A DNA stretch of 32,000 bases from Xanthomonas campestris pv. campestris str. ATCC 33913. GTDB lineage: Bacteria; Pseudomonadota; Gammaproteobacteria; Xanthomonadales; Xanthomonadaceae. Position numbers and translations under genes: made by a program. The notes below the pieces were generated by a model, which did not search any database, had not been told where the DNA came from, and saw only the letters and a list, made by a program, of their open reading frames with translations. Below, piece after piece: positions 5,637-23,145 of this stretch (position 1 is its first letter; each line of letters opens with the position of its first letter). The stretch lies in the NCBI RefSeq assembly GCF_000007145.1, contig NC_003902.1, positions 150,001 through 182,000 on the forward strand, read 5' to 3'.

Positions 5637-8600
5637 CGAAGGTTTTGTTGGGAATGCTGTGCATGATCGCGCTGCCGCTGAGCGCGGCCACCCCCACCGC
5701 GCCGGAACTGTTGTTCCGTGTCTCGGCCGACCGCAGCCTGGAGGCCGATGTCGCACGCGGCGATGGCGTGCCCAACTTCCGCGACAAGATCGCGCTGGTG
5801 CCCACCGGCAAACGCGGCAACGCCATCGAATGGGCCGACGACGGCGTGCTGTCGTGGAATGCGCCCGGCAACCTCTACACCCAGCGCGGCACGCTGAGCT
5901 TTTTCTGGCGCGCGCGCTACGCCGTTGGCGAAGCGCCGTTCGTGATCTTCCGCGTCGGCTACGCCGACCACACCAGCTGGGACATGGCCTGGCTGCGCAT
6001 CGACTGGAACGGCCACGGCTTCGATGCCTTCGTCACCGACGCCAACCTCGCGCGCACCCGCGTCTCCTTCAAGCTGGATAAACATCCCACTGCCAGCGAC
6101 TGGACCCACATTGCCTTCGCCTGGGATGAAACCCGCGGCGTACGCCTGTATGTGGACGGCAAGGAAGCCGCACGCGTGGACTGCGGTGCGCCCTGCGCCA
6201 ACGGCGGCGCGCTCGACTTCGACGCCGCGCTCGACCAGTTCGGCCTGGCCGGCCGCGTGATGTCGCCGCACCAGGTGCAGAGCCGCTACAACTTCCTGCG
6301 CGGCAGCGACTTCGACGAGATCCGTATCTACGACCGCATGCTCGATGGCGCCGGCGCCGCCGCACTGGCGCGCCTGCAGGAGCCCACCAGCGCTGAAGCA
6401 CCCACCAACGACGCGCAACACGCCGCCTTCCTGCACCGCTACGGCTGGGACAACGGCCACACGCCGCCTGCGCTCACCGCACCGGTCACCCGCATCCGCA
6501 AGGTGGAATTCACCGACGCGCGCGATCTCAAGCAATGGATGTGGAAGGCCACCGACGGCATCGCCGAAACCACCTGGCCCGGTGTCTACAACCGTTCGCG
6601 CCTGCCCGGCCGCAACGACTACTTCCAGCTGCCGGACTGGAACACCTACGTCGAAGGCGGCAAGGCGCTGGACCTCACCCTGCCAGACGAGCCGGTCAAC
6701 CGCATCGAGCTGCGCGGCGCCGCCTATGGCCAGGCCAGCTACACCGCGCCCACCGCCACCGGTGCAACCAACGCGCAAGCGCAACCGTTGTTCGACCGCA
6801 AGCAAGGCGTGGTGCGCAGCGTGGATACGTTTGCCGAGCGCCGTGGTGGCACGCTGCGCTTTGCCAACACCGCGCAGGAAACCCCCATCCAGGAAATCTG
6901 GGCCTACAACGTCCAGCCGGGCGAGGTGCCCGCCGTCAGCGCGCAGCTCAGCTACACCGTGCGCAGCGACATCCAGCCCGACTACGACAACCTCGCCACG
7001 CTGCGCGATGTCATCGCCGGCCGCTACCCGCCGGGCGAGCGCCAGACCGTGGTCGCGCTGCCCACCAAGGCCCCGGCCCGCAAGCGCCCCAGCGACAAGA
7101 CCGCCGCCAGCCGCGCGCAGCACCCCATCGTGCACATCCTGGTGCCGTCCAGCCTGGGCGACCCGCCGCCAGACCAGCCGCTGATGCGCAGCTGGTCCTA
7201 CGGCTGGGAAAACATGCACGACGGCCTCGATGGCATCGCCATCACGCTGCCCGCGCTCAACCTGCCGGCCACCCATAACGGCAGCATCCCGCTCAACATC
7301 CGCATCAAGGACCCCATCTGGCCCGCACGCGACATGATCGATGTCTCGGTCGCGGTCGCCCCCGGCCAGGCCCGTACGCTGTGGCTGGATCTGCGCGATC
7401 GCATCCTGAGCAACGACAGCCTGATGCTCAGCATCGCCGCCGCCGCACCCGGCTTCGATGCCAACGCGCTCGATGGCACCCAGCTGCAGCTGGTGTTCAA
7501 GCCGCGCGCCGAGGCGATCAAGGAGCACGTCGCCGACCGCTTCAACCAGGTCAAGGACAACTGGGGTTTTCTGGTGGAAGAACACACCACCTCCAAGCGC
7601 CAGCTGCTCTACAAGCGCCTGGATGCCGACATCACCGACCTGCTGCGCGTCGACCCGGACCACGCCCTCGGCCGCCAGTACTGGAACGACATCAGCTACG
7701 CCAACCAGGGCGCGTTGCCTGTCGAGATGCCCAGCGTGCCCAAGGGCGTGCCGGCCTGGGCGTTCTGGCAGCTGCAAGACCTCAGCGCTACGCGCCGCTA
7801 CATCCGCTGGTGGATCGAGCAGCGCCAGGTGGCCTACGGCGATTTCGGCGGCGGCATCTCCGACGACTCGGACCTGGTGCAGCAATGGCCCGGCGTTGCC
7901 CTGATGGGCGTGGACCCGGACATGCTCAACGCCTCCATGCTGGCGCTGTCCGATGCCAACTACCGCAACGGCATGTTCACCAACGGCCTGTCCACCATCG
8001 AAACCGACGAGCTGCATGCCTACGAAGAAGGCATCAACCTCAACAGCGCCCTGCTGTACCTCAACTGGGGCGACCCGCGCACCGTCGAGCGCCTGATGGA
8101 AACCGTCAAGGCCTTCGATAATGTCATCCAGGTCAACCCGCAAGGCCACCTGCTGTTTGCCAGCAACTGGTTCGGCGGCCGCAAGGTCTACCGCGAACCC
8201 AACTGGCAATGGCAAAAACCGTATTCGTTCCCGGTGGTGCACCCCGCCATCATCCTGGGCGCCTATAACGCCGACCCCAACAGCCGCCGCATCGTCACAG
8301 GATTAGCCGACGGCTATCTCGCCCACGCCTACACCAACGGCAAGGGCAACTGGGCGCTGCCCAACGAGATCAACTGGCAGACCGGCAAAACCCGCGGCGG
8401 CGAACTGTTCGAAGGCAGCGGCGGCGCCGACACCTTGCACACCTTCTGGGCCGCCTACCGCTTCACCGGCGATGCGCGTTACTTAAAGCCCATCAACTAC
8501 CGCGTCGCCAACAGCGGCCCCAATGGCCTCTCGCTGCTCAACGAAAACTTCCTCGATGTCATGGGCAAGCGCAGCGACTGGAGCGGCAAGCTCATCGACG

Positions 8601-9700: not shown

Positions 9701-9910
9701 ATGTTGAGCAAGGGATGGAGCATCGTGGCACTGACTGTGGCCGCATTGGGATTGTTTACCGCATCCGCGCAGGCGCGTGTTAGGGCCGCCGGCACGCACC
9801 ACACCACCAGTCATGGCGGCCACTACAGCGCAGGCCACGGCGCCTCGCACAAGGGTGGCAGCTACCGCAGCACAAGTACCAACAACCACTATCGGCGTCA
9901 CAAGTCCTAG
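9701..9910 (+). CDS. Small secreted His/Gly/Ser-rich protein (69 aa), cassette-like
   Basis: gggggaag RBS precedes the ATG at 9701. The signal peptide is MLSKGWSIVALTVAALGLFTASAQA. The mature part is GTHHTTSHGGHYSAGHGASHKGGSYRSTSTNNHYRRHKS. Confidence 0.6.
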   Translation: MLSKGWSIVALTVAALGLFTASAQARVRAAGTHHTTSHGGHYSAGHGASHKGGSYRSTSTNNHYRRHKS

Positions 9911-9951
9911 CAGGCCTCGAGCCAACGCCACTCGGAAGTGCAGCGTAATGC
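9905..9951 (+). other. Possible degenerate, short attC site
   Basis: TCCTAGC (overlapping the stop codon, as in the attC at 12378) ...GAGCCAACGCC... GTAATGC. It is only about 47 bp and its R' is imperfect. Confidence 0.3.
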
Positions 9952-9970
9952 AAGAACTAGGACGCGAAGA

Positions 9971-10354
9971 ATGCGCTATCAAAAACTCCTAAAGCTGCTG
10001 GCTGGCCTTGCCGGTGTCATGCTCGCGGCGACAGGCGCATTGCTGGTGGCGCTGGTTACAGCAGGCCAGGTACGTGAGGGACAGACGGGCGCATTGATCA
10101 GCGGCATCGGATTTCTGGTGATGGCCGCTCCTGCATTGGCAACGCCGTTTTCCTTACGCGCTGCCAAGCGATTGCTGATGCTGACACTGTGCTGCCTCGC
10201 GGCACTCGCGATTTGGCTTTCTTTCTGGCCGAAGGAGGGCGTGATGCCGACGCTCCAACTGCGAATCGCCGTCCTTGCGTTCCCGGCACTTCTGATACTC
10301 CGCATGCTGCTGGCTCGCCATCGCAAGGTGACGAAGCTTAGCGCTGACAGTTGA
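9971..10354 (+). CDS. Small integral membrane protein (about 127 aa, about 4 TM), unknown function
   Basis: From the ATG at 9971: MRYQKLLKLLAGLAGVMLAATGALLVALV..., followed by three more hydrophobic spans. The antisense ORF 9979-10359 is Arg/Ser-rich and looks non-coding. Confidence 0.55.
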   Translation: MRYQKLLKLLAGLAGVMLAATGALLVALVTAGQVREGQTGALISGIGFLVMAAPALATPFSLRAAKRLLMLTLCCLAALAIWLSFWPKEGVMPTLQLRIAVLAFPALLILRMLLARHRKVTKLSADS

Positions 10355-10407: not shown

Positions 10408-10608
10408 ATGGATATGATTCGCGTCACCTCGTCGGCCATCAGCGCTATTGGCTACGACCCGGCTAGCATGCGTATGAAAATTCAATTCGTGCAGGGCCAC
10501 ACATACGACTTCTGCGGTGTGCCCTCGCACGTGTTTCAGGGGCTCCGCGATGCGGGGTCACAAGGCCGTTACTACAACGATCACATCCGTGACCGCTATC
10601 AGTGCTGA
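10408..10608 (+). CDS. KTSC-domain protein (66 aa)
   Basis: MDMIRVTSSAISAIGYDPASMRMKIQFVQGHTYDFCGVPSHVFQGLRDAGSQGRYYNDHIRDRYQC fits the KTSC pattern (V.S..I.A.GYD....L.I.F..G..Y.Y..VP..V...L....S.G.Y.N..IR..Y), recalled from memory. Confidence 0.7.
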   Translation: MDMIRVTSSAISAIGYDPASMRMKIQFVQGHTYDFCGVPSHVFQGLRDAGSQGRYYNDHIRDRYQC

Positions 10609-10630: not shown

Positions 10631-10688
10631 GTAGCAACTCATTCAAGCCGAACCCGCTTAGCGTGTTTTTTTAATTCAGGCGTTAGAA
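10631..10688 (+). other. attC recombination site (58 bp)
   Basis: GTAGCAACTCATTCAAGCCGAACCCGCTTAGCGTGTTTTTTTAATTCAGGCGTTAGAA. The R' core GTTAGAA lies 4 nt before the next ATG. Confidence 0.7.
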
Positions 10689-10691
10689 CTC

Positions 10692-10997
10692 ATGGCAAGC
10701 ATCGGAATTATCTTGCGAGCAAATGAAGAGTTGGATGAGTTGTCTGAGGACTGGGCGCCAGAGTCGCTTGGTTCAAGGGCAGATGTCCTGGCTGCAATCG
10801 GAAGTTGCATGCAAGCTGACGACACCAGCTTGGCACTAAATTTCCGAGTCGAGGAACCTGAGGACAGCGGAGAGCCGCGGACCATATCCGTATCAGGCGT
10901 CTGGGGCCAAAGAGAGTCTGCAATCTTGCATAGGTTGTGCAATCTGCTTGGTGCCCGATTCTACGATGCCGAGTCTGGGGATTTCATCGATTTATGA
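10692..10997 (+). CDS. Acidic 101-aa protein of unknown function (cassette ORF)
   Basis: The ORF fills the cassette between two attC sites and is very rich in Asp/Glu. No motif was recognised. Confidence 0.5.
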   Translation: MASIGIILRANEELDELSEDWAPESLGSRADVLAAIGSCMQADDTSLALNFRVEEPEDSGEPRTISVSGVWGQRESAILHRLCNLLGARFYDAESGDFIDL

Positions 10998-11056
10998 GTA
11001 CTAAAAATTGATTCGAGCCGAACCCGATCCCTTTTGGCTTAATTCAAACGTTAGAG
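10998..11056 (+). other. attC recombination site (59 bp)
   Basis: GTACTAAAAATTGATTCGAGCCGAACCCGATCCCTTTTGGCTTAATTCAAACGTTAGAG. Confidence 0.7.
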
Positions 11057-11113
11057 CGCACCAATCATTGTCGCCCCTAATTGAAGATTAGGCCCCAGAC
11101 AGAGGAATGATTC

Positions 11114-11809
11114 ATGGCAAGATGCACAGCACCAGTTCGTGGCCACAGTTCAGCAGCGGCAGCCGCCGCGTGTCCTGCTTGTCGCTACCGCAGCAGCTCT
11201 CGTTACAGCAGCGGAAATGGCGGTTCCTACTACCCATCAACGAGTAGCCCTAGCTATACCAGCTCAAGCAGCGGCAGTGGGCGCAAGAGCTCAAAGCCGC
11301 GCTGGTCAAAGACAGGATCGACTATTCTCTACACACCGGCCGAGGTGCAATCACTTGCACCGGTCCGCGAGGCTGTGGAGGTCCAGGTCGCGCGGCACCC
11401 AGACAAACGAGATGTATTTCTTTGCCACGCCTGGGATGATCGTCAGGGAGCTGCGAAAGAACTGCATGACCTTCTTGAAGCTGCAGGGGTAAAAGTCTGG
11501 TTCAGTGAGAAGGACCTTGGACTTGGCGTCCCTATGATGCGCGCAATTGATAAGGGCCTAGCCAACTCCAAAGTCGGCCTCGTGCTTGTGACACCTGCAC
11601 TTTTGGCACGCCTTCCAAAAGAAAGTGTCGCAGACAAGGAGCTCTCAACACTGCTTGCGGGAAATCGACTTGTGCCTATCGTTCACAAGACAACATACGA
11701 GGCGCTTCGCGAGATAAGTCCAATGCTCGCTTCAAGAACGGGTCTTGACACCGCAGAGGACTCGATGTCTGAAGTAGCTGCAAAAATCGCTGAGCTAGTT
11801 GATTTCTAG
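11114..11809 (+). CDS. TIR-domain protein (231 aa) with a Ser/Tyr/Gly-rich low-complexity N-terminus
   Basis: gagga RBS sits 7 nt before the ATG. From about aa 99 the sequence is TIR-like: RDVFLCHAWDDRQGAAKELHDLLEAAGVKVWFSEKDLGLGVPMMRAIDKGLANSKVGLVLVTPALLARL...ADKELSTLL. That is the DxFxSHA-type start, the W.D/E block, and a Glu in the position of the NADase catalytic residue. Confidence 0.8.
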   Translation: MARCTAPVRGHSSAAAAAACPACRYRSSSRYSSGNGGSYYPSTSSPSYTSSSSGSGRKSSKPRWSKTGSTILYTPAEVQSLAPVREAVEVQVARHPDKRDVFLCHAWDDRQGAAKELHDLLEAAGVKVWFSEKDLGLGVPMMRAIDKGLANSKVGLVLVTPALLARLPKESVADKELSTLLAGNRLVPIVHKTTYEALREISPMLASRTGLDTAEDSMSEVAAKIAELVDF

Positions 11810-11823
11810 GGGGGGGGGGGGGG
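11809..11823 (+). repeat. Homopolymeric G15 tract
   Basis: 15 consecutive G. The first is the G of the TIR gene TAG stop. The tract ends 4 nt before the attC R'' box. Confidence 0.95.
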
Positions 11824-11827
11824 CGCG

Positions 11828-11888
11828 CTCTAAAAAATTCTTGCAAGCCGACGTCGCTTCGCGGCGCGGCCTAACTTAGGCGTTAGGT
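11828..11888 (+). other. attC recombination site (61 bp), the best-preserved copy
   Basis: CTCTAAAAAATTCTTGCAAGCCGACGTCGCTTCGCGGCGCGGCCTAACTTAGGCGTTAGGT. It is almost colinear with the aadA-type attC of class 1 integrons as I recall it (GTCTAACAATTCGTTCAAGCCGACGCCGCTTCGCGGCGCGGCTTAACTCAAGCGTTAGAT). Confidence 0.85.
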
Positions 11889-11903: not shown

Positions 11904-12383
11904 ATGGATTATTTAATTGAATCAAGGCCGATGCAGAAGTGGGATGTCCGGTTCTGTGATTTGGCCAGATACATATCAGCCTGGTCTAAAGACCCGAACG
12001 CTAAGGTTGGAGCAGTTCTCTTCTCGAAGAAGGGCGGAAATGTGTCAATTGGATATAACGGATTCCCTATCGGTGTTGAGGACTCCGCAGAGCGGTTGAC
12101 TGACAAAGATGTAAAGTTAGAATTAGTCGTACACGCAGAAGTCAACGCCATTATCGCAGCAGGTGTTCGCGCAGAGGGTTCAACGATTTATGTATGGGGA
12201 AAACCAATTTGCGCGCGGTGCGCCGGTCCAATCATTCAGGCGGGAATAAAAAGAGTAGTTGCCCTTGCGCCTGGTGAGTCAGAATCTCATTGGGATAAAA
12301 GTGGAAAGACTGCTCGTGACATGTTCATAGAGGCAGGCATTACAGTTGATTTTTATACGGCTAACGAGCCAGTGACTACTTAG
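11904..12383 (+). CDS. dCMP/cytidine deaminase-family zinc enzyme (159 aa, ComEB/dCMP-deaminase-like)
   Basis: aaggag RBS at 11892. Motifs are VGAVLFSKKGGNVSIGYNGFP, HAEVNAI (the H-A-E zinc/catalytic motif) and PICARCAGPIIQAGIKRVV (the PCxxC motif). Confidence 0.85.
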   Translation: MDYLIESRPMQKWDVRFCDLARYISAWSKDPNAKVGAVLFSKKGGNVSIGYNGFPIGVEDSAERLTDKDVKLELVVHAEVNAIIAAGVRAEGSTIYVWGKPICARCAGPIIQAGIKRVVALAPGESESHWDKSGKTARDMFIEAGITVDFYTANEPVTT

Positions 12384-12500: not shown

Positions 12501-13720
12501 TAAGGATGGTCTGATCAACGGCGTCGGAGGATGAGCCCAACTACATCGGCCAGGCTGACGGCGCTCAGATCCTCGATTTTTTTGCCGTTTCCGGCGCGTT
12601 TGCAGGGTGTTGCCTGCGTTACAGGCGCACGCTCCCCATAGCAGGCAATAACTGCTTTCGCTTCATCCACAGGTTTGACAGCGCAAACAGCGTCAGCACC
12701 TGCGCGGTGTTCTTCGCCAGGCCGCGATAGCGGACCTTGGTGTAACCGAACTGGCGCTTGATCACCCGGAACGGATGCTCCACCTTCGCACGCACGCTGG
12801 CCTTGAAGTGTTCCCAGCGCTGTTCCCGAGCACGCTCCCGCTTGTTGCCGATGGCTTGAAGCACCGAACGCTTGGCAGCAATGAAAAATGCAGCCTCGCA
12901 GTCCTGCAGTTCTTCGCGCTTATCCGCACCGGTGTAGCCGCTGTCGCCAAACACGCTGTCTTCTTTGCCATGCAGCAATGCGTGCGTCACCGTGACATCG
13001 GCGACGTTGGCGGCTGTGCAATGGACGTGGTGCACCAACCCGGAAAATTCATCCACGCCGATGTGCGCCTTCATCCCGAAATACCACTGATTGCCCTTCT
13101 TGGTCTGATGCATCTCAGGGTCGCGCGCATGGTCGGCGTTCTTGGTCGAACTGGGCGCCGCGATCAGCGTCGCATCGACGATCGTGCCCGACCGCAGGCT
13201 CTGGCCCTTGCGCGCCAGATGCGCGTTGACCGCTTCCAGCATCCGCGCGGCAAGGCCATGGGTCTCCAGCAGGCGGCGAAAGTTGAGAATCGTGGTCTCG
13301 TCCGGAACGTTGTCCAAGCCACCGAGCTGGGCAAAGCGCCGCAAGGTCGGGATCTCGTGCAGTGCTTCTTCCATCGCCGGATCGCTCAACGCATACCACT
13401 GCTGCAGCAGATGAATCCGCAACATCGTCGCCAGTGCGTACGGCTGCCGACCTGGCCGCCCCGAGACCGGATAGTGCGGCGCGACCAGCCCGAGCAGTTG
13501 CTGCCACGGGACGACCTGCTCCATCTCGGCCAGAAAGATCTCCCGGCGCGTCTGCTTGCGCTTGCCCAGGCCCTCAGCGTCACCGAACGTCAGTTGCATG
13601 GATCACCCCTCAACATCAGGCGGGTAGTGTCGCGTATCTGTGGTGCGTTGTTCAGAGGTTCCTTAAATCCAGCATTCCGCGGTCCGTCGCGGATGCACAA
13701 GTTTTCTTAGACACCCTTCC
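12501..13720 (-). mobile_element. IS5-family insertion sequence (IS5 group), about 1.2 kb
   Basis: It contains the transposase at 12619-13599. The end at 13701-13720 reads (reverse complement) GGAAGGGTGTCTAAGAAAAC. The other end, around 12501, is TTAAGGATGGTCTGATCAAC, an imperfect match. The exact left boundary and target duplication are not resolved. Confidence 0.75.
12619..13599 (-). CDS. IS5-family DDE transposase (326 aa)
   Basis: It is colinear with E. coli IS5 transposase as I recall it: QLTFGD...KRKQTRREIFLAEMEQVVPW, TMLRIHLLQQWY.LSD.AMEEAL, DPEMHQTKKGNQWYFGMKAHIGVD, VEHPFRVIKRQFGY.KVRYRGL.KN. Confidence 0.93.
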   Translation of the reverse strand: MQLTFGDAEGLGKRKQTRREIFLAEMEQVVPWQQLLGLVAPHYPVSGRPGRQPYALATMLRIHLLQQWYALSDPAMEEALHEIPTLRRFAQLGGLDNVPDETTILNFRRLLETHGLAARMLEAVNAHLARKGQSLRSGTIVDATLIAAPSSTKNADHARDPEMHQTKKGNQWYFGMKAHIGVDEFSGLVHHVHCTAANVADVTVTHALLHGKEDSVFGDSGYTGADKREELQDCEAAFFIAAKRSVLQAIGNKRERAREQRWEHFKASVRAKVEHPFRVIKRQFGYTKVRYRGLAKNTAQVLTLFALSNLWMKRKQLLPAMGSVRL

Positions 13721-13997: not shown

Positions 13998-15391
13998 GGG
14001 GTAAGGTTTAACTAATAAGTCAATCTGACTCTGAGGTTTCCCCACATTTCCTCCTGGCAAATCAATCACTTGCGACGTAATTGCCTGGAAGAAAGTGCGC
14101 GCATGGCGCAATCTTCAAGGTGACTAAGCCAGAGAAGGTTGACGACCATGCGCGCCAGCGAAGTATTGCAGAAGTGCCTGCCCAACTCACTGTCCGGGAT
14201 GCATGCGTTGCGCGAACGCGCGTTGCTGCATGCGGTCGAGGCGTTGTTGCACGGACGCAGGCTGACACTGATGGACATCGCACGTTCGTGGCCGAGCGCA
14301 CTGCGGGTGCGCGCGCCGCTCAAGGCAGTTGATCGCCTGTTGAGTAATCGCAATTTGCAGGTCGAGCGATCAGTGATCGACCACGAGATGGCGCACTGGC
14401 TGCTGCGCGGCGCGCAGCCGGTAATCGTCATCGACTGGAGCGATCTGAAGCCAGACAAATCGTGGTGTCTGCTGCGCGCAGCGGTGCCGGTGGGCGGCCG
14501 CACGCTTACCTTGCTGGACATGGTAGTGCCAGGAAAGCAGCAGGGATCGCCTGGTGCAGAAAGACGCTTCTTGCAACAACTGAGGGCACTGGTTCCGGAC
14601 GATGTTCGCCCGATCCTGGTCACTGACGCCGGCTTCCGGACACCGTGGTTCCGCGCTGTATCGGCCATGGGCTGGTGTTGGGTTGGGCGACTGCGCGGGC
14701 GCACGCAAGTCAAGCCGCAGGACGTGCGGGATGAAGCAGATCAGTGGATCGACAGCCGGAAACTGCATGTGTTGGCGTCCAATCGTGCATGCGAGTTACC
14801 GCCGATGCAGGCCAATCGCAGCGATCCACTCGATTGCAGGTTGGTGATTTACGCCAAGGCACGGCAAGGGCGCAAACAGTGCAATCGCCGCTCACCCGCC
14901 AAAGTCTCGCGTGCGTCATCGAGTCTGAAGGCCGCAGCGCGCGAGCGCGAGCCTTGGCTCATCGTTGCATCCCCGCAGCTGCAGGCGCCCAGCGCAAAGC
15001 AGTTGGTCAATGTGTACGCACGACGGATGCAGATCGAGCTTGCATTTCGCGATCTGAAATCACATCGCTACGGCCAGGCGCTGGAAGACAGTTTGACCCG
15101 ACGCGGCGAGCGACTGCAGATCCTGCTGCTGATCAATACGTTGGCTGCATTCGCCAGCTGGTTGGCGGGGCTGGGATGCGAAGCGACCGGTATCGCCCAG
15201 TGGCTGTCTCCTCGCAACAGCACACGCAAGCTTTACTCCACGCTACGCATCGGCCGAGAAGCGCTGGTCAGGCAGTGGCCGATGGAACCCGTCTCACGGT
15301 GGATAGGGCGCTTGCGCGCACTGCCTGCGGCAGTGCGCGAGCAGATGACGCTTACGGTGTAAAACGTGGGGATACCTTAGAACCTGACCCC
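13998..15391 (+). mobile_element. IS4-family insertion sequence, about 1.39 kb
   Basis: Terminal blocks on the left are GGGGTAAGGTT (13998-14008) plus CTGAGGTTTCCCCACATTTCC (14031-14051). The reverse complement of 15361-15391 is GGGGTCAGGTTCTAAGGTATCCCCACGTTTT. The left end carries 22 extra bp between the two blocks. No flanking direct repeat was seen. Confidence 0.75.
14148..15362 (+). CDS. IS4-family DDE transposase (about 404 aa)
   Basis: gagaagg RBS, then ATG 14148 (the ORF is open from TTG 14139). The DDE_Tnp_1-like layout shows VIVIDWSDL (first Asp region), ILVTDAGF (second Asp) and YARRMQIELAFRDLKS (the Y-R-E-K region). Confidence 0.88.
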   Translation: MRASEVLQKCLPNSLSGMHALRERALLHAVEALLHGRRLTLMDIARSWPSALRVRAPLKAVDRLLSNRNLQVERSVIDHEMAHWLLRGAQPVIVIDWSDLKPDKSWCLLRAAVPVGGRTLTLLDMVVPGKQQGSPGAERRFLQQLRALVPDDVRPILVTDAGFRTPWFRAVSAMGWCWVGRLRGRTQVKPQDVRDEADQWIDSRKLHVLASNRACELPPMQANRSDPLDCRLVIYAKARQGRKQCNRRSPAKVSRASSSLKAAAREREPWLIVASPQLQAPSAKQLVNVYARRMQIELAFRDLKSHRYGQALEDSLTRRGERLQILLLINTLAAFASWLAGLGCEATGIAQWLSPRNSTRKLYSTLRIGREALVRQWPMEPVSRWIGRLRALPAAVREQMTLTV

Positions 15392-15668: not shown

Positions 15669-18600
15669 ATGGAAGTTCTGAAGCCCCTGCGGCTGCGTCG
15701 TTACGCTTGCGCATTGTTGCTAAGCACTGTCTGCGGAGTCTGTGCGCAGGAGGTCAAGCAAGAATGGACGGTTTCTGCCAAGCACCCAGAAATTCCGACG
15801 ACAACCGTTGGCGTTTTTGACAATCAACATCGTGCAATTGAGGCCATGGCGCAGATCGCTGGTCCTAGCGATGCAGAGTATGCGTATCGTTTAGCTACGC
15901 ACGTAAAAGAAACAAAAACGAACGAAGACCAGACAGTTACGCTCACATACTGGCTTGGTAACGATCAACCATCCGATCCCGAATGGACTTACTCTGCACT
16001 AGGTAGCTCCTACGCAACTGAGGTCGAGATGGCTGCAGGTATTGAGTCCTTCTACACTCAATTTAACGAATGTGGCAAGGTTTCTCTGAAGCCAGCAACC
16101 GAATGGACGCCATATTCGGCGGAATTCGAGGGTCGTATTGATTCAAAACGTTTTGATGTTATAGCGAACGTGCTTTATTACGATGGAACGTGCTTACCCG
16201 TAGAGCACACTGGGTTCGGTACTCGCCAGCGCAGGCTATTCTGTCCTTTATATACGACCTGGAACGATGATTATCAAGCCTGTGTAAATCTGGAAATATT
16301 TGCTTACTTGACCGGGCCTTCTTTAGAGGATACGTGTTCGGTTGGCAATCCGTGCGATGTAAAGACCGGTGAAAAATCACAACCTGAACAGGATTTCGAT
16401 CTTGGATGGATACGTCTCGTTCGAACGTTCCGGTCCTCGCAGGTTGGACGGCGATCGAACCTTGGGGCGGGCTGGTTCAACTCACATGAAATCAGTGTTT
16501 CTTCAAATGGCTCTCACGCAATACTTGCTGAAGGAAACGGGCTTCAACGTAATTTCGAATCGGTCGGAAATTCTTTTATTGCTTCTGATGGCTCTGGGGA
16601 TCGGCTTGAGAAAATAGCCAACGGGTGGAGACTTTTTAGGTCGGAAACGGTTTCGGAATTTGATGCTACAGGCGCGTTGGGCTTGGTGTCGAAGGACGAC
16701 GGTAGTTATCTTCGATACGCGTACGATCGATCCTCGAGGTTGGAATCGATTACGCACTCTACCGGACGCAAGTTGGTTTTTAACTACGCTGATGGCTCCC
16801 GTTATGCCCAGCTTATTCGAGTTGCGCTGGACGGAGTCGCGTTGGCTACTTACGCTTACTCTGACACTTTCCCGGACAGCGCGGTGCTGGAGAGCGTGAC
16901 CCATGCGGACGGCCGGGTCAGGTCGTATCTGTATGAAGACGAGGATTTTTACCGCTTCCTGACCGGTGTGGTCGCGGAGGATGGAATGCGCTACAGCACA
17001 TTCGCCTACAACGCTACGGGGCGTGTTGTGTCAAGCCAACATCACGATGGCGCAGACGGTGTGACGCTTGATTACACCGATGGCGCCACCGTTGTAACCG
17101 ACGCGTTGGGGGAACAGACGACATATACGTTGAGCCAGCGTTCCGCAGGTCCTAGAAAAATAGATGACGTCACCGACAGCGCAGGTACTCTCAGCAGCGA
17201 CTATCTGGACGCAAGTGTTGATTTTCGTCGGCGCTTGAGAGCTTCTACCGATCGTGCCGGGGTTATCACGCAACACGCCTATGCCGAACTTGCGGATGCT
17301 GGCGTGCCAGTCAATGTGCACACGGTCACCGAGGCGGCTGGTTTACCCAGTCAGCGAATCACAAGTACGCGCACCGCTGTCGACAGCAATCGATTGATGT
17401 CAGTTCAATCAAGTGACAAGCAAGTAGGCTATGTCCGAAATGCGCGACTGCAGCCGCAGCAAGTCATCACGACCGACGTCGCAAGTGGTCAGACCAGGGT
17501 TCTCAGTATGAACTACTGCGAGCCAGCCGATGTGGCTGCCGGTAGCGACTGTCCCGTACTTGGCTTACTGAAGTCCATCGATGGCCCGCGCACGGATATC
17601 GACGACCGTACGACCTACAACTACTACCCCATCGATGCCGCTGGGTGCCAGACCGGCACCGGACCGTGCCTGTACCGTAAGGGTGACCTCAAGCAAACTA
17701 TCAACGCCCGCGGCCAGATCCGGGAAAATCTGAGCTATGACGCAGCAGGCCGCGTTCTTTCTGCCGTTGATGAGAACCGGGTACTAACCGATTACAGCTA
17801 CCATCCGCGTGGTTGGTTGGCATCGACCACCGTGCATGGCGCGACTTCCGCGCAGAATCGCGTGACCACGTTCGAGTACTGGCCCACCGGCTTGGTCAAA
17901 CGCATCACCCAGCCCGATGGCAGCTACGCCACGTTTGTCTACGACCAGGCCCAACGCCTCACCGATGTCACCGATACGCTGGGCAATACCCTCCATTACG
18001 TGCTTGATAAGGCTGGCAATCGTCTGGAAGAGCAGACCAAGGACGCGCAGGGTGCGCTCAAGCGCAGTTTGAGCCGTATTTACAATCAATTGGGGCAACT
18101 GGAAACGCAGGCGGACGCAGCCGCAAATCCTACCGACTACGCCTACGATGCAAACGGCAACCTGCGCTTGATCACCGACGCATTCGGTCGTAGAACCCTG
18201 CAAGAGCACGACCCACTCGGTCGGCTTGCGCGCACGTTGCAGGATGTCGATGGCATCAAGGCCGAAACCAACGTGGGTTACGACACGCAGGATCGCCCGC
18301 TGCAGGTCAAGGACCCGAAACGTCTGGACACGCGCTACACGTACAACGGGTTAGGCGACATCCTGAAACTGACCAGCCCGGATACCGGCGCCACCAGTTA
18401 TACCTACGACAGCGCCGGTAACCGCGCCACGCAGACCGATGCGCGCGGCGTCATCTCCACCTATGGCTACGACGCGCTCAACCGGGTTTTGAGCATCAGC
18501 TACCCGACCGCCGCCTTCAATGTCAGCTATACCTATGACGTCACGCAGAACGTGTGCGCCAGCGGTGAGACGTTCACCGTCGGGCGCCTGGCCAAGCTCC

Positions 18601-20174
18601 AGGATGGCAGCGGTACCACCCAATACTGCTACAACCGCTTCGGCGAGGTGGTGCGCAAAGTGCAGACGGTCAACGGCAAGGTGTTGGTGCTGCGCTACGA
18701 CTACACAACCGGCGGCCGCCTGCGGTCGATGGTCTACCCGGACGGCACCACGGTCGACTACGTCCGCAACGCACAAGGGCAGACGACCGAAGTTGGGGTG
18801 ACTGCCTCGGCCGGCAGCCGCCAGCGTCTGCTGAGCGGAGCGACCTACTATCCGTTCGGCCCATCCGCCGGCTGGACCTACGGCAACGGCCGCAAGCTGG
18901 CGCGCACGTACGATCAAGACTACCGGCCGCAGAGCATCCAGGACACCCGCGCTGGAGGGCTGGAAATCGGCTTCGGCTTCAATTCCGTTGGCGACCTCAC
19001 TGCCCTGACCCCGGCCGGCAACCCAACACCAGACCTTCGTCTGAACTACGACGCGCTCGGTCGACTCACTGCGCTCAAGGATGGCACTACCGAGGCGGTG
19101 ATCGACGGCTATAGCTACGATGCCACCGGCAATCGTCTGAGTGCCAAGGTCGGCGCCGCCACGCAGGCCTACACTTATCCGACGACCAACCACCGTCTGA
19201 GCGCAGTCGCAGGCGTGGCACGCACCTACGACAAGATGGGCAACACCCTCACCATCGGCGGCAAGGCACGCGAATACCTGTACGACACCACCGGTCGCAT
19301 GACCCAGGTCAAGCGCGCAGGCGCCGCGGTCATGAATTACCGCTACAACGGCCGAGGCCAGCAGGTACGCCGCTATCTGGGCACCACCAACACCTATACG
19401 CTTTACGACGAGGCCGGCCACTGGCTCGGTGACTACGACACCAACGGCGCACCTAAGCAGCAAGCGATCTGGCTGGACGACCTGCCGGTTGGGCTGCTGG
19501 CAAACGGCGGTCAGTTGCACTACATCGAACCCGACCACCTCGGCAGCCCTCGCGTTGTCGTCGATGCCGCCCGCGACGTTGCCGTGTGGAGCTGGAGCCT
19601 GAAAGGCGAAGCCTTCGGTAATACCGCACCCAACCAGGATCCGGATGGGGATGGCATCGCAATGGTGTTCGACATGCGGTTCCCTGGGCAGCGCTTTGAT
19701 GCAGCGAGCGGATTCAATCAGAACTACTTTCGTGATTATGATGCCGCTACTGGTCGGTATGGGCAGAGTGATCCGATTGGGTTGGCGGGAGGAGTGTCTA
19801 CCTATGATTATTCAAATGCTAATCCCTTAACCACCTCTGACGTATTTGGCCTAACAGGAAATCCTTTGTCTGGCTACAATCCGGCTCTAGGTCCAATAAT
19901 TATTAAAACCCCTACCTCCAAAATAGGTTTTTTAGATAAATTATTTTCGTCATGGATTGTAGGGAAAGTCACGGGGGGTATAAGTACTGTTAATAAATAC
20001 GGGCAAATTGTGCCAAAGCCGACTACTTTTCTGGGTAGGGCGAATATCTTCGTATGGGCAATGTCTCCAACGGAAATGTCATGTTCTGAACTGGATTGCG
20101 GTAAAAATAGTTTACCTGATTATTTTGAAAGGCAGCATCCAATCGAGAGTTGCGAGTCTGGAAATGAATATTGA
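15669..20174 (+). CDS. rhs: Rhs/YD-repeat polymorphic toxin (1501 aa) with an N-terminal Sec-type signal peptide and a variable C-terminal toxin domain
   Basis: The signal is LRLRRYACALLLSTVCGVCAQE. Many YD repeats are present (YAYDRSSRL, YTYDSAGNR, YGYDALNRV, YAYDANGNL, YSYDATGNRL). The Rhs core end is FPGQRFDAASGFNQNYFRDYDAATGRYGQSDPIGLAGGVSTYDYSNANPLTTSDVFGL. An AT-rich 106-aa tail follows at 19854-20171. Confidence 0.93.
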   Translation: MEVLKPLRLRRYACALLLSTVCGVCAQEVKQEWTVSAKHPEIPTTTVGVFDNQHRAIEAMAQIAGPSDAEYAYRLATHVKETKTNEDQTVTLTYWLGNDQPSDPEWTYSALGSSYATEVEMAAGIESFYTQFNECGKVSLKPATEWTPYSAEFEGRIDSKRFDVIANVLYYDGTCLPVEHTGFGTRQRRLFCPLYTTWNDDYQACVNLEIFAYLTGPSLEDTCSVGNPCDVKTGEKSQPEQDFDLGWIRLVRTFRSSQVGRRSNLGAGWFNSHEISVSSNGSHAILAEGNGLQRNFESVGNSFIASDGSGDRLEKIANGWRLFRSETVSEFDATGALGLVSKDDGSYLRYAYDRSSRLESITHSTGRKLVFNYADGSRYAQLIRVALDGVALATYAYSDTFPDSAVLESVTHADGRVRSYLYEDEDFYRFLTGVVAEDGMRYSTFAYNATGRVVSSQHHDGADGVTLDYTDGATVVTDALGEQTTYTLSQRSAGPRKIDDVTDSAGTLSSDYLDASVDFRRRLRASTDRAGVITQHAYAELADAGVPVNVHTVTEAAGLPSQRITSTRTAVDSNRLMSVQSSDKQVGYVRNARLQPQQVITTDVASGQTRVLSMNYCEPADVAAGSDCPVLGLLKSIDGPRTDIDDRTTYNYYPIDAAGCQTGTGPCLYRKGDLKQTINARGQIRENLSYDAAGRVLSAVDENRVLTDYSYHPRGWLASTTVHGATSAQNRVTTFEYWPTGLVKRITQPDGSYATFVYDQAQRLTDVTDTLGNTLHYVLDKAGNRLEEQTKDAQGALKRSLSRIYNQLGQLETQADAAANPTDYAYDANGNLRLITDAFGRRTLQEHDPLGRLARTLQDVDGIKAETNVGYDTQDRPLQVKDPKRLDTRYTYNGLGDILKLTSPDTGATSYTYDSAGNRATQTDARGVISTYGYDALNRVLSISYPTAAFNVSYTYDVTQNVCASGETFTVGRLAKLQDGSGTTQYCYNRFGEVVRKVQTVNGKVLVLRYDYTTGGRLRSMVYPDGTTVDYVRNAQGQTTEVGVTASAGSRQRLLSGATYYPFGPSAGWTYGNGRKLARTYDQDYRPQSIQDTRAGGLEIGFGFNSVGDLTALTPAGNPTPDLRLNYDALGRLTALKDGTTEAVIDGYSYDATGNRLSAKVGAATQAYTYPTTNHRLSAVAGVARTYDKMGNTLTIGGKAREYLYDTTGRMTQVKRAGAAVMNYRYNGRGQQVRRYLGTTNTYTLYDEAGHWLGDYDTNGAPKQQAIWLDDLPVGLLANGGQLHYIEPDHLGSPRVVVDAARDVAVWSWSLKGEAFGNTAPNQDPDGDGIAMVFDMRFPGQRFDAASGFNQNYFRDYDAATGRYGQSDPIGLAGGVSTYDYSNANPLTTSDVFGLTGNPLSGYNPALGPIIIKTPTSKIGFLDKLFSSWIVGKVTGGISTVNKYGQIVPKPTTFLGRANIFVWAMSPTEMSCSELDCGKNSLPDYFERQHPIESCESGNEY
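18856..19781 (+). repeat. Main-gene copy of the rhs core-end repeat (partners at 20377-21300 and, partially, 22128-22377)
   Basis: Direct nucleotide comparison by eye. The 3' 600 bp has only scattered mismatches; the 5' about 350 bp is more diverged. No identity was computed. Confidence 0.9.
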
Positions 20175-20479: not shown

Positions 20480-21730
20480 TTGGAAATCGGCTTCGGCTTC
20501 GATGCTGTTGGCGACCTCACCGCTCTGACCCCGGCCGGCAACCCGACACCGGAGTTGCGACTGGATTACGACGCCCTCGGTCGGCTCACAGCGCTGAAAG
20601 ACGGCGCCGCCAATACCGTGATTGGCGGCTACAGCTACGATGTCACCGGCAATCGCCTGAGTGCCAAGGTCGGTGGCGTCATGCAGACCTACACATATCC
20701 AACCACCAACCATCGTCTGAGTGCGGTGGCAGGCGTGGCGCGCACCTATGACAAGATGGGCAACACCCTCACCATCGGCGGCAAGGCACGCGAATACCTG
20801 TACGACACCACCGGTCGCATGACCCAGGTCAAGCGCGCAGGCGCCGCGGTCATGAAATACCGCTACAACGGCCGAGGCGAGCAGGTACGCCGCTATCTGG
20901 GCACCACCAACACCTATACGCTTTACGACGAGGCCGGCCACTGGCTCGGTGACTACGACACCAACGGCGCACCCAAGCAGCAAGCAATCTGGCTGGATGA
21001 CCTGCCGGTAGGCCTGCTGGCCAACGGCGGTCAACTGCACTACATCGAACCCGACCACCTCGGCAGCCCTCGCGTTGTCGTCGATGCCGCCCGCGACGTT
21101 GCCGTGTGGAGCTGGAGCCTGAAAGGCGAAGCCTTTGGCAACACTGCGCCCAACCAGGATCCGGATGGGGATGGCACCGCGATGGTGTTCGACATGCGGT
21201 TCCCAGGGCAGCGCTTTGACGCAGCGAGCGGATTCAATCAGAACTACTTCCGGGATTACGATGCGGCGACTGGTCGGTATGGGCAGAGTGATCCGATTGG
21301 CTTAAGAGCAGGAATTGGTACATACGTTTATGTTGAAGGAAGCCCAGTTAGCCACGTAGATCCTTCCGGTCTATGTGAAGACAAACCAAAAGAAGACTGT
21401 CTTGATGCTGCTTTAAGTACCTACTCTATGGAAGAGTCAGTTAATTCGATTGTGGGATTTGGCGCCGGTTCCGCAATCTTTGGTGGGTCGGCGCAAGTAG
21501 TCAATAAATCAGCAATTAAGCCTCGCGGTGGTGTAGCAGGTGGAGGTCCCAGCGGGCGTTACACGAGCTACTCCAGACGTTACCTGGGAAATGGAGTTGG
21601 GAGAACCATTGGTAGACTCGGAATAGGAACAGTGATTAAGAGGGCAGGTATTATCGGGGCAGGGATTGGTGCAATAACAGAGCACGTTGAAGCGCTGAAT
21701 GCTTTTATAAAATGTCGAGGTGCTCAGTGA
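20480..21730 (+). CDS. Orphan rhs core-end plus alternative C-terminal toxin (416-aa ORF with no obvious native start)
   Basis: Nucleotide homology to the main rhs runs 20377-21300, matching 18856-19781. The ORF opens only at TTG 20480, where the main gene has CTG (Leu). The canonical end is GSPVSHVDPSGL. A different 118-aa Gly-rich tail follows at 21374-21727. Confidence 0.65.
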   Translation: MEIGFGFDAVGDLTALTPAGNPTPELRLDYDALGRLTALKDGAANTVIGGYSYDVTGNRLSAKVGGVMQTYTYPTTNHRLSAVAGVARTYDKMGNTLTIGGKAREYLYDTTGRMTQVKRAGAAVMKYRYNGRGEQVRRYLGTTNTYTLYDEAGHWLGDYDTNGAPKQQAIWLDDLPVGLLANGGQLHYIEPDHLGSPRVVVDAARDVAVWSWSLKGEAFGNTAPNQDPDGDGTAMVFDMRFPGQRFDAASGFNQNYFRDYDAATGRYGQSDPIGLRAGIGTYVYVEGSPVSHVDPSGLCEDKPKEDCLDAALSTYSMEESVNSIVGFGAGSAIFGGSAQVVNKSAIKPRGGVAGGGPSGRYTSYSRRYLGNGVGRTIGRLGIGTVIKRAGIIGAGIGAITEHVEALNAFIKCRGAQ

Positions 21731-22089: not shown

Positions 22090-22127
22090 ATAATCCATGC
22101 AGAACTGTGTAGGGGCCTTAAGAGGAT

Positions 22128-22377
22128 GAATTGGCTTCGGTCCGGTCGGTACCTCATTGCCCCAACCCCGGCCGCCAACCCAACATCAGAACGTTGTTTG
22201 GACTACGACACGCTCGGCCGACTCACTGCGCTCAAGGATGGGACTACCGAGACGGTGATCGACGGCTATAGCTACGATGCCACCGGTAATCGCCTGAGTG
22301 CCAAGGTCGCCGCCGCCACGCAAGCTTATACATACCCAAACACCAACCACCGCCCAAGCGCAGTCGCAGGCGTGGCC
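22128..22377 (+). pseudogene. Third rhs core fragment (about 250 bp), truncated on both sides
   Basis: It aligns with main rhs 18964-19218 (...LDYDTLGRLTALKDGTTETVIDGYSYDATGNRLSAKV...NHRPSAVAGVA). Homology stops at 22377, 7 nt before the IS end at 22385. Confidence 0.8.
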
Positions 22378-22384
22378 CAAGAAC

Positions 22385-22473
22385 GGGGTCAGGTTACGGT
22401 GCGCTCATGTTGCGGTGATCCAGTGCCACGAAGACCGGCGCATCCAGCAGCAAATCAGTGTGTCGGTGAAGCT
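22385..22473 (-). mobile_element. Solo terminal remnant of an IS4-family element related to the one at 13998-15391
   Basis: It starts with the same 11-mer GGGGTCAGGTT as the right end of the intact IS, but inverted. The - strand reads ...LLLDAPVFVALDHRNMSAP* with its stop just inside the end. This mirrors the intact element (...ALPAAVREQMTLTV* near its end). Confidence 0.5.
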
Positions 22474-23145
22474 TCACTTATCCCGCCGATACACCCCATT
22501 AAAACTCACACTCGCGCCGCCGCATTGCAGGTTGTCTGCAACGATCAATAAGTCGCCAAGCAGCTGCAGACGTACCGTGCAGTCATCCTCTCGTACTTCC
22601 AGACGGTTGCCCTCCGCAAAGCTGCGTGCGGTGACCGCGCCGAAGTGTGGGCCGCCGGGCACCTGCTCCGGGCTGGGATTGGCGCTGGGCCAGTAGGCGT
22701 CGCCATTGACGGTGATGCTGCCGTCGCCATTGGCGGTCAGCTGTAGCGTGTTGTCGCCGTTATGCCAGTGGGCGTTCCACGCACTTGCGGGTGGCGTGGC
22801 GGTGCTGGCGATGGGCTGCAGGCTGCGCTCGGCGACCCAGCCGGCACTGACGCCCACCTTGTTGGGATAGGACGCGCAGGCGTAGCCGCCACGGTGCTGG
22901 GCCAACACCACCACGTCGCCCTTGACCACGTAGCTGCGCTGCCGGCAGGCTACCTCGCCCTTGCTGGGGCAGCCGTCGCTGTCGTTGAGCAGATACAGGC
23001 GGGGTATTTCGACGCGCGCCAGCGTAAATCCTGACGGGCTATTGGTGAATGACCCGTTGCGGCAGTCGGCCGCTTCGTCATCGTGTGGCGCGGCATGCGC
23101 CATGGCTGACACCGACAACAGGAACAGCAAGCAGGCCTTGTGCAT
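22474..23145 (-). CDS. Secreted/periplasmic hypothetical protein (about 223 aa)
   Basis: ggag RBS 8 nt before the ATG at 23145. The signal peptide is MHKACLLFLLSVSAMAHA. High GC3. No family was recognised. Confidence 0.7.
   Translation of the reverse strand: MHKACLLFLLSVSAMAHAAPHDDEAADCRNGSFTNSPSGFTLARVEIPRLYLLNDSDGCPSKGEVACRQRSYVVKGDVVVLAQHRGGYACASYPNKVGVSAGWVAERSLQPIASTATPPASAWNAHWHNGDNTLQLTANGDGSITVNGDAYWPSANPSPEQVPGGPHFGAVTARSFAEGNRLEVREDDCTVRLQLLGDLLIVADNLQCGGASVSFNGVYRRDK

Follow-up and report, generated by a model that had tools for sequence, protein, structure and literature searches.

What might a lone gene for a TIR-domain protein be doing in an integron cassette of a plant pathogen? 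The question is raised by a 32,000-nucleotide stretch of Xanthomonas campestris pv. campestris ATCC 33913 (NC_003902.1, 150,001-182,000; hereafter the window, to which all coordinates refer), in which a single open reading frame (ORF) at 11114..11809 on the plus strand encodes a TIR protein of 231 amino acids (aa). A preliminary description, made by reading this DNA, had proposed a compact anti-phage or NAD-depleting module consisting of one gene. The best reading of the evidence assembled here stays close to that proposal: the gene would encode a single-gene abortive-infection NADase comparable to SpbK or to E. coli TIR-V, -VI and -IX. For the fuller version of this reading, in which a self-contained single-protein hydrolase of nicotinamide adenine dinucleotide (NAD+) serves as a one-gene abortive-infection defense and sits here as a promoter-less cassette in a lamG-adjacent, integrase-less array, we regard the case as evenly balanced.

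Domain architecture and active site

The ORF is real, and every peptide string that had been quoted from it is found in its translation. Its parts are as follows.

11114..11809, plus strand: coding sequence (CDS) of the 231-aa TIR protein, identical to AAY47222.1
11114..11194, plus strand: N-terminal Cys/His module, aa 1-27 (M-A-R-C4-T-A-P-x-x-G-H11-x8-C20-P-x-C23), a presumed zinc knuckle
11195..11293, plus strand: Ser/Gly/Tyr-rich linker of variable length, aa 28-60, predicted to be disordered, with recurring Tyr
11294..11407, plus strand: conserved segment ahead of the TIR domain (pre-TIR segment), aa 61-98 (KPRWS..GS..YTP.EVQSL.P.R..VE), in which a helix is predicted at aa 75-94
11408..11800, plus strand: TIR domain, aa 99-229, from Pfam TIR_2, PDB sequence matches and Foldseek
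11627..11629, plus strand: codon GTC of Val172, which stands where the WxxxE motif has its Trp
11639..11641, plus strand: codon GAG of Glu176, the predicted catalytic glutamate

The C-terminal TIR domain of ~130 residues that had been claimed was borne out by the profile search proposed for it, which matched Pfam TIR_2 over aa 101-216 (E=9.2e-16; 58.9 bits, the cut-off being 28). Among solved proteins the closest are Brucella TcpB/BtpA, Paracoccus PdTIR, AbTir and BtTir (phmmer against PDB sequences, E 1e-17 to 1e-14), and Foldseek returned the same set (TM ~0.8, probability 1.00, 28-33% identity over the alignments). By its sequence, the domain is a member of the TcpB/PdTIR/AbTir clade. With these best sequence and fold matches it shares the xxxE-L active-site helix and the pre-TIR segment, the latter being common to the TIR family and to a sister clade with a coiled-coil N-terminus of the AbTir type. 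In the TIR family, however, the Cys/His module and the Ser/Gly/Tyr linker stand in place of the coiled coil, the Trp of WxxxE is Val or Ile, and 5-6 residues are inserted before the catalytic helix.

The catalytic glutamate had been described as retained, and indeed E176 is invariant in all 101 unique homologous proteins, the set from which the conservation counts are taken. E176-L177 align with the E-L of WPAREL in TcpB and of WPQKEL in PdTIR, which places V172 opposite the motif's Trp in an alignment bridged by the sister clade. The residue at position 172 is Val in 70 of the 101 proteins, Ile in the other 31 and aromatic in none; among five aligned sequences of the sister clade, four have Trp or Phe there and one (P0161) has Ile. 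The equivalent residues of AbTir are W204 and E208, of which E208A is inactive and W204A lowers 2'-cyclic ADP-ribose (2'cADPR) from 93% to 24% of the product (10.1101/2022.05.07.491051). An aromatic residue at the Trp position is needed for cyclization of ADP-ribose (ADPR) and is present in all cyclase TIRs tested (10.1101/2022.05.07.491051). The family thus lacks the aromatic residue of cyclase-type TIRs (those producing 2'-, 3'- or N1-cADPR), and because Val or Ile is always found there, plain NAD+ hydrolysis is predicted: we infer a hydrolase that gives ADPR and nicotinamide and not a signal-making cyclase. Of the two effector roles offered earlier, that of a NADase fits a TIR domain with its catalytic Glu, whereas a ThsB-like signaling role is disfavored by the Val/Ile.

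The first ~98 residues had been taken for a low-complexity tract that matched no sensor domain. This characterization suits the Ser/Gly/Tyr linker at aa 28-60 but neither the conserved Cys/His motif at aa 1-27 nor the helix-bearing segment at aa 61-98; the N-terminus is better described as a conserved, structured-looking module followed by a linker, and a hidden Markov model (HMM) of the module finds the same motif on non-TIR proteins. Within the module C4, T5, A6, P7, G10, H11, C20, P21 and C23 are invariant across the 101 proteins, each encoded by two to four synonymous codons, and in the pre-TIR segment W64, S69, Y73, L81 and R85 are likewise invariant. The linker has indels and varies in length, but its Ser/Gly composition and regularly spaced Tyr are kept (88-90% of the proteins have Tyr at alignment positions 35 and 39). 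A structure prediction of the N-terminal region, suggested at the outset, gave a similarly divided answer: the AlphaFold2 model (built on 32 sequences, mean pLDDT 74) is disordered at aa 28-56 (pLDDT <50) but not throughout, with a helix at aa 75-94 ahead of the TIR fold at aa 99-229.

The ratio of nonsynonymous to synonymous differences (pN/pS) is 0.12 in the TIR domain, 0.19 in the N-terminal module (taken as aa 1-26), 0.38 at aa 62-98 and 0.56 in the linker, all with synonymous differences that are saturated (pS 0.72-0.83). On these ratios the whole protein is under strong purifying selection. Given that the invariant residues are encoded by varied codons and that pN/pS is low, both the N-terminal module and its start at codon 11114 are real and functional at the protein level. 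Zinc binding is presumed from the module's four invariant Cys/His ligands; among Pfam, NCBIfam and PHROG models, none covers the module.

Many Xanthomonas records (e.g. P0287, P0288 and P0290) annotate the gene as 144-154 aa with a start at residue 78 or 88, and many annotations in this genus therefore drop the conserved N-terminal 77 residues. N-terminal truncation of the gene in these strains was considered and rejected: in the one case compared, the 154-aa record P0288, the upstream DNA is that of the window (X. campestris CP156004, L194:1195-1965, identical), so the short records would reflect a choice of annotation.

Solitary carriage and the cassette in X. campestris

A homologue search in which 8000 candidates were scored gave 7999 proteins at E<=0.001, the best 120 of which are 73-100% identical over their full length. 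At least 535 matches in several phyla were confirmed in a scan of one genome per species, and the best 80 of these (64-97% identical) come from Alpha-, Beta- and Gammaproteobacteria, Bacteroidota, Bacillus, Paenibacillus, Peribacillus, Acidobacteria, Planctomycetota and Myxococcota. The E. coli homologue WP_001389195.1, 73% identical and with the same first 24 residues, is present in 110 of 5426 complete genomes.

The genomic settings of these copies are diverse. They include the slot between antiterminator Q and holin in a Pseudomonas lambdoid prophage, a P. luteola plasmid, an Aeromonas island, cargo of integrative and conjugative elements (ICEs) and plasmids near Abi_C, BrxR, HTH/M78 and Tra genes, and an E. 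coli island with YagK/YfjJ-domain, inovirus Gp2-family, DUF905 and DUF932 genes. In two unrelated E. coli replicons, a plasmid (L146:4490-6705) and a chromosome (L147:4491-6687), the gene lies 164 bp downstream of an ISNCY-family transposase gene, which suggests that it travels with this element. Twenty-two IMG/VR viral contigs carry the gene, and it is through these that prophage carriage becomes visible, a search of phage GenBank proteins having returned just distant TIRs of 28-32% identity. Integron cassettes are a minority context (~10 of 114 copies), so the integron-defense setting that had been envisaged holds for a genuine cassette here but does not describe the family at large. In several bacterial phyla the gene travels alone, without a conserved neighbor, and the mobile vehicles that carry it are of at least five kinds; such contexts are typical of defense cargo, and solitary carriage on so many vehicles is in line with a gene that suffices alone.

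When ORFs within 4 kb of 85 copies were clustered, no neighbor family occurred in more than six loci; among the 149 nearest ORFs, PADLOC families had at most two members each and Pfam families at most four (phage integrase being the top one), and ThsA is absent from the 25 families listed by member count among these flanking ORFs. Secretion-related families, such as components of type III and type IV secretion systems (T3SS, T4SS), do not recur among the neighbors either. In the window itself the ORFs scanned with Pfam and PADLOC include no ThsA, SIR2, SLOG, Macro, STING or Argonaute, which agrees with what had been said of ThsA, STING and Argonaute. The preliminary description had left the choice between a self-contained system and an orphan; since no partner appears in the window or beside 85 other copies, the former is favored over an orphan of a two-gene system.

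PADLOC already models the family, which is not new to databases: model PDLC00424, labeled ThsB1 and ThsB, matches residues 1-230, essentially the full length, at E=7.8e-122 (NCBIfam has no model specific to the family). A Thoeris system has a ThsB-type TIR protein, which is found here by that model, and a ThsA in the same operon, which is not. As neither ThsA nor any recurrent neighbor was seen, the label is not backed by gene context, and it is likely a mis-filing in which defense-annotation tools call the family ThsB, with ThsA beside none of the 85 copies examined.

Two observations concern the DNA just upstream of the gene. Of eight prophage, ICE and integron-cassette copies that were aligned, six (L002:7930-8000, L009, L021, L054, L083 and L092) share a conserved leader of ~70 nt (CATCGGCTGCTTAACCCTCTACTTGAAAGGGCGATTACAAATGGAAGGATTACGAC-ATG), which makes the mobile unit slightly larger than the CDS. 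In ICE/plasmid copies (L009-L013 at 5700-5924, and L063), and not elsewhere, a DUF2188 gene (74 aa) lies 76 bp upstream of the TIR gene; DUF2188 was rejected as a partner, being upstream in just five loci.

In the window the gene occupies a cassette of its own, as had been proposed. Running from 11052 to 11882 (831 bp, assuming recombination between the G and the TT of the core) and bounded by attC sites that end in a GTTRRRY core, it holds one ORF in array orientation, and between the two attC cores there is no second plausible gene. The features involved are these.

11006..11057, plus strand: attC of the preceding cassette, with R' core GTTAGAG at 11051-11057 (repeat families D1/D2/D3); the TIR cassette begins after G 11051
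11052..11113, plus strand: cassette leader of 62 nt, with a Shine-Dalgarno-like AGAGGAA at 11101-11107, 6 nt before the ATG, as read from the sequence
11810..11823, plus strand: G14 homopolymer, directly after the TIR stop codon and before the attC
11828..11888, plus strand: attC of the TIR cassette, with R' core GTTAGGT at 11882-11888, from repeat structure and cross-genome alignment

The attC calls are based on repeat structure and cross-genome conservation. Repeat units of one family (D1) end at 10686, 11054, 11886 and 12434, with spacings of 368, 832 and 548, and a further, weaker copy (repeat family D5) ends at ~10399; generic single-strand DNA folding of the sites gave z-scores of 0.2-1.2, a measure that is uninformative for short, bulged attC hairpins. 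The attC at ~11828-11888 is conserved in four genera, and base-for-base in the copies of the cassette in X. hortorum, Stenotrophomonas and a metagenome-assembled genome (MAG) of Rhodanobacteraceae, save that its left-hand box reads TCTAAAA in the window vs TCTAAC in the relatives. The whole cassette (11036-11887) is 93% identical in X. hortorum, where it lies between different cassettes (pYEATS, Abi_C), and 85% identical in a Stenotrophomonas array (L016) with ~20 related attC copies; the Rhodanobacteraceae MAG has it as well. Its leader aligns with those of the Stenotrophomonas and Rhodanobacter copies, and its 5' end, GTTAGAGCGCAYC, is found again in 8 of 114 homologous loci, with Methylobacter, Thiobacillaceae and a Planctomycetota MAG among them. 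With a conserved attC and recurrence in other arrays among different neighbors, this is a bona fide, mobile integron cassette. The G14 tract, where the homologous cassettes of X. hortorum and Stenotrophomonas show just GG or GGG, could be slippage-prone or a sequencing artefact.

ORF scans found no integrase in the window. Clusters of attC sites next to lamG that lack an integrase are known in Xanthomonas, where they are seen as relics of past integron activity (10.1101/2025.06.18.660453), and the array in the window matches them.

A proposed one-gene abortive-infection defense and its alternatives

How such a protein could act alone is suggested by work on other TIRs: the NADase active site forms between two head-to-tail TIR domains, and accessory domains switch it on by raising the local concentration (PMC12847820). 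The present protein is predicted to be inactive as a monomer or dimer and to become active once its TIR domains cluster head-to-tail. Clustering in response to a trigger would be supplied by the N-terminal module, which is probably basic and zinc-binding, together with the Tyr-rich linker, and the trigger that engages this N-terminus may be a component of a phage or another invader, or else a perturbed host state. The extreme conservation suggests a trigger that many hosts or invaders share, and not a single phage protein. Clustered TIRs would then hydrolyze NAD+ to ADPR and nicotinamide, so that NAD+ is depleted and the infected cell aborted, and no cyclic-ADPR signal should be made, as the aromatic residue for cyclization is Val/Ile.

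There are precedents for a TIR defense made of one gene. SpbK of B. subtilis ICEBs1 is a lone TIR protein that becomes active when it clusters on a phage portal (PMC12847820); like the gene described here, it is one gene on a mobile element that joins a non-catalytic N-terminal region to a C-terminal TIR NADase, and both are thought to act by trigger-induced TIR clustering and NAD+ depletion (PMC12847820). It differs in having an N-terminal domain of its own, as against a 27-aa Cys/His motif and a disordered linker, and in making N1-cADPR, a product whose role is still open (PMC12847820), as against a family without the cyclization-linked aromatic residue. None of the 13 PDB sequences that matched at E<=1 is an entry named SpbK. 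[quoted passage not shown] Compact candidate defense genes carried as one cassette in a chromosomal array, as here, have also been described (10.1101/2024.07.02.601686), but the TIR array is without an integrase and most copies of the gene lie outside integrons; the words 'TIR', 'Thoeris' and 'Xanthomonas' are all absent from the text of that preprint (Darracq et al. 2024). Against these precedents, what is new in the sequence is a candidate single-gene TIR effector with an N-terminal module that is unnamed in the libraries searched and with a non-cyclase active-site signature.

Several observations weigh against an abortive-infection NADase. We found no report in the literature of NADase activity, toxicity or phage resistance for the family. 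Its E. coli member, common enough in genomes to enter a test set, was probably one of the 32 TIR clusters that Wang et al. 2024 tested (PMC11350192), 20 of which gave no defense; it may be TIR-V, TIR-VI or TIR-IX, but it may equally belong to the 20 inactive ones. Sensors of phage proteins usually diversify, yet this N-terminus is almost invariant across phyla. The prediction of a hydrolase and not a cyclase stands on one residue. In two copies, L050 (Halomonas) and L086 (a Magnetococcales MAG), the module and the TIR domain are in different frames, and these are apparent pseudogenes. Lastly, expression in the window is uncertain: there is no integrase, no sigma-70-like promoter was found in the window in front of the TIR gene, and the left-hand attC box is altered.

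It is this last point that gives weight to the idea that the gene is silent cargo in X. campestris, intact and yet not transcribed from an integrase-less array, and with no current function there. We hold this to be possible but somewhat doubtful. Besides the missing integrase and promoter-like site, the altered attC box and the inserted G14 tract, an IS5-family element breaks the array 0.8 kb downstream, and the relic status of lamG-adjacent arrays (10.1101/2025.06.18.660453) would fit. The ORF is nonetheless intact and identical in many X. campestris pv. campestris strains (the 231-aa protein is on 99 contigs, with AAY47222.1 coming from strain 8004; the DNA of CP156004 is the same), and a Shine-Dalgarno sequence is present. 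Read-through transcription is also possible, since the genes of the array all point the same way as the lamG gene upstream.

A different view would be that the gene serves the element that carries it, as an addiction-like toxin, a factor for exclusion between elements or an anti-defense enzyme helping its prophage, plasmid or insertion sequence (IS). It is almost always on mobile elements (the Q-holin prophage slot, plasmids, IS-adjacent sites and integrons), its module is also found at the head of genes that cluster beside an ArdC-like anti-restriction gene and one for DUF2958, and its strong conservation would suit a target in the cell that is itself conserved better than a phage target that varies. 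Yet it comes without any antitoxin-like partner or conserved small ORF, DUF2188 being upstream in just five loci; searches found no known anti-defense TIR; and exclusion encoded by a prophage is operationally phage defense. We consider such a role unlikely.

The PADLOC label would follow naturally if the protein were an orphan Thoeris-type ThsB, which produces a signaling nucleotide (a cADPR isomer or His-ADPR) for an effector encoded elsewhere in the genome, and the N1-cADPR of SpbK, with its undecided role, lends this some color. The protein is indeed small and TIR-bearing as ThsB is. Its predicted product is no cyclic signal, though, with the cyclization residue Val/Ile in 101 of 101 proteins; no ThsA lies in its operon or nearby in the copies examined, nor does any partner recur in 85 copies from very different hosts; and a gene that moves alone between phyla cannot depend on an unlinked receptor. 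An orphan ThsB is for these reasons distinctly unlikely. A Tcp-type virulence factor aimed at eukaryotes (similar to TcpB/BtpA, or suppressing plant immunity in the manner of HopAM1) might be suspected from the closest solved structures, Brucella TcpB/BtpA and other 'Tcp' proteins, and from a Ser-rich N-terminus in a plant pathogen, but it is highly improbable given 64-97% identity in soil, marine and groundwater bacteria without a eukaryotic host (Gallionellales, Methylobacter, Nitrosospira, Bacillus, and Planctomycetota and Acidobacteria MAGs), the lack of recurrent T3SS or T4SS families among the neighbors, and the absence of the aromatic residue, which makes 3'cADPR, the HopAM1 product, unlikely (10.1101/2022.05.07.491051).

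Should the abortive-infection NADase prove active, it would be among the smallest and most host-independent TIR immune effectors (231 aa, 64-97% identity across several phyla), and a convenient model for partner-free off/on control of TIR NADases.

The Cys/His module on other proteins and the surroundings of the cassette

DNA-pattern scans and an HMM built from TIR-family N-termini both place the module motif, M-x-x-C-[TS]-A-x3-G-(x)-H-x8-C-P-x-[CH], at the extreme N-terminus of non-TIR proteins. The HMM E-values on these proteins range from 2e-8 to 0.05 among 9494 ORFs, with six of seven loci at <=2e-3. The loci include three consecutive ORFs beside an ArdC-like gene (L142:4351-6205), two ORFs (L145:1628-2560), at least six ORFs (L154:641-8332), a DUF2958 fusion (L185:1739-2257) and L191:576-1478; their C-termini are LRV repeats, DUF2958 or unidentified, and they often form tandem arrays of 3-8 genes on mobile elements, once directly upstream of the ArdC-like gene. 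Shared between such proteins, the module offers a new handle on a set of uncharacterized mobile-element genes.

We tentatively suggest, with more doubt than conviction, that the module is a previously undescribed small zinc knuckle which mobile elements attach to their proteins (here TIR, LRV-repeat and DUF2958 ones) as a portable N-terminal tag for sensing or assembly. In the TIR family, with a FUS-like [G/S]Y[G/S] linker beside it, it might make a TIR NAD+ hydrolase condense or form filaments in response to a conserved cue (e.g. invading nucleic acid or a change in host state), and the single gene would then be a device for immunity or suicide that works unchanged from Bacillota to Pseudomonadota.

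Matches to the DNA pattern alone include chance ones, such as a ~440-aa family, presumably threonine-synthase-like, that the module HMM does not score. No TIR copy has a second module-bearing ORF within 6-8 kb. For this reason, and because the published effector-associated domains (Kaur et al. 2020), small adaptors that an effector shares with a core NTPase encoded nearby, are helical or alpha+beta and have no Cys/His motif, we rejected the reading of the module as one of these.

The remaining cassettes of the array carry a KTSC protein (10408-10608), an uncharacterized 101-aa ORF (10692-10997) and, next after the TIR cassette, a 159-aa protein of the cytidine/dCMP-deaminase fold (11904-12383), whose matches to anti-phage dCTP deaminase models are weak and partial (NCBIfam 35 bits against a cut-off of 400; PADLOC dCTPase E=6e-11 over 45 residues). 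Upstream of the array lie genes for a pectinesterase, a pectate lyase and a LamG protein of 1295 aa. Two ORFs separate lamG from the first attC: one at 9701-9910 (69 aa, with a signal-peptide-like start and a His/Gly/Ser/Tyr-rich tail) that had no match in PADLOC, the sole library used for it, and one at 9938-10354 (138 aa, four hydrophobic segments) that had none in Pfam, NCBIfam or PADLOC. Downstream, the IS5-family transposase gene that interrupts the array (12619-13599, minus strand) is followed by a second DDE transposase gene (14139-15362) and then by an Rhs toxin locus, with a 1501-aa Rhs protein at 15669-20174 and two more ORFs with Rhs repeats at 20480-21730 and 22126-22551.

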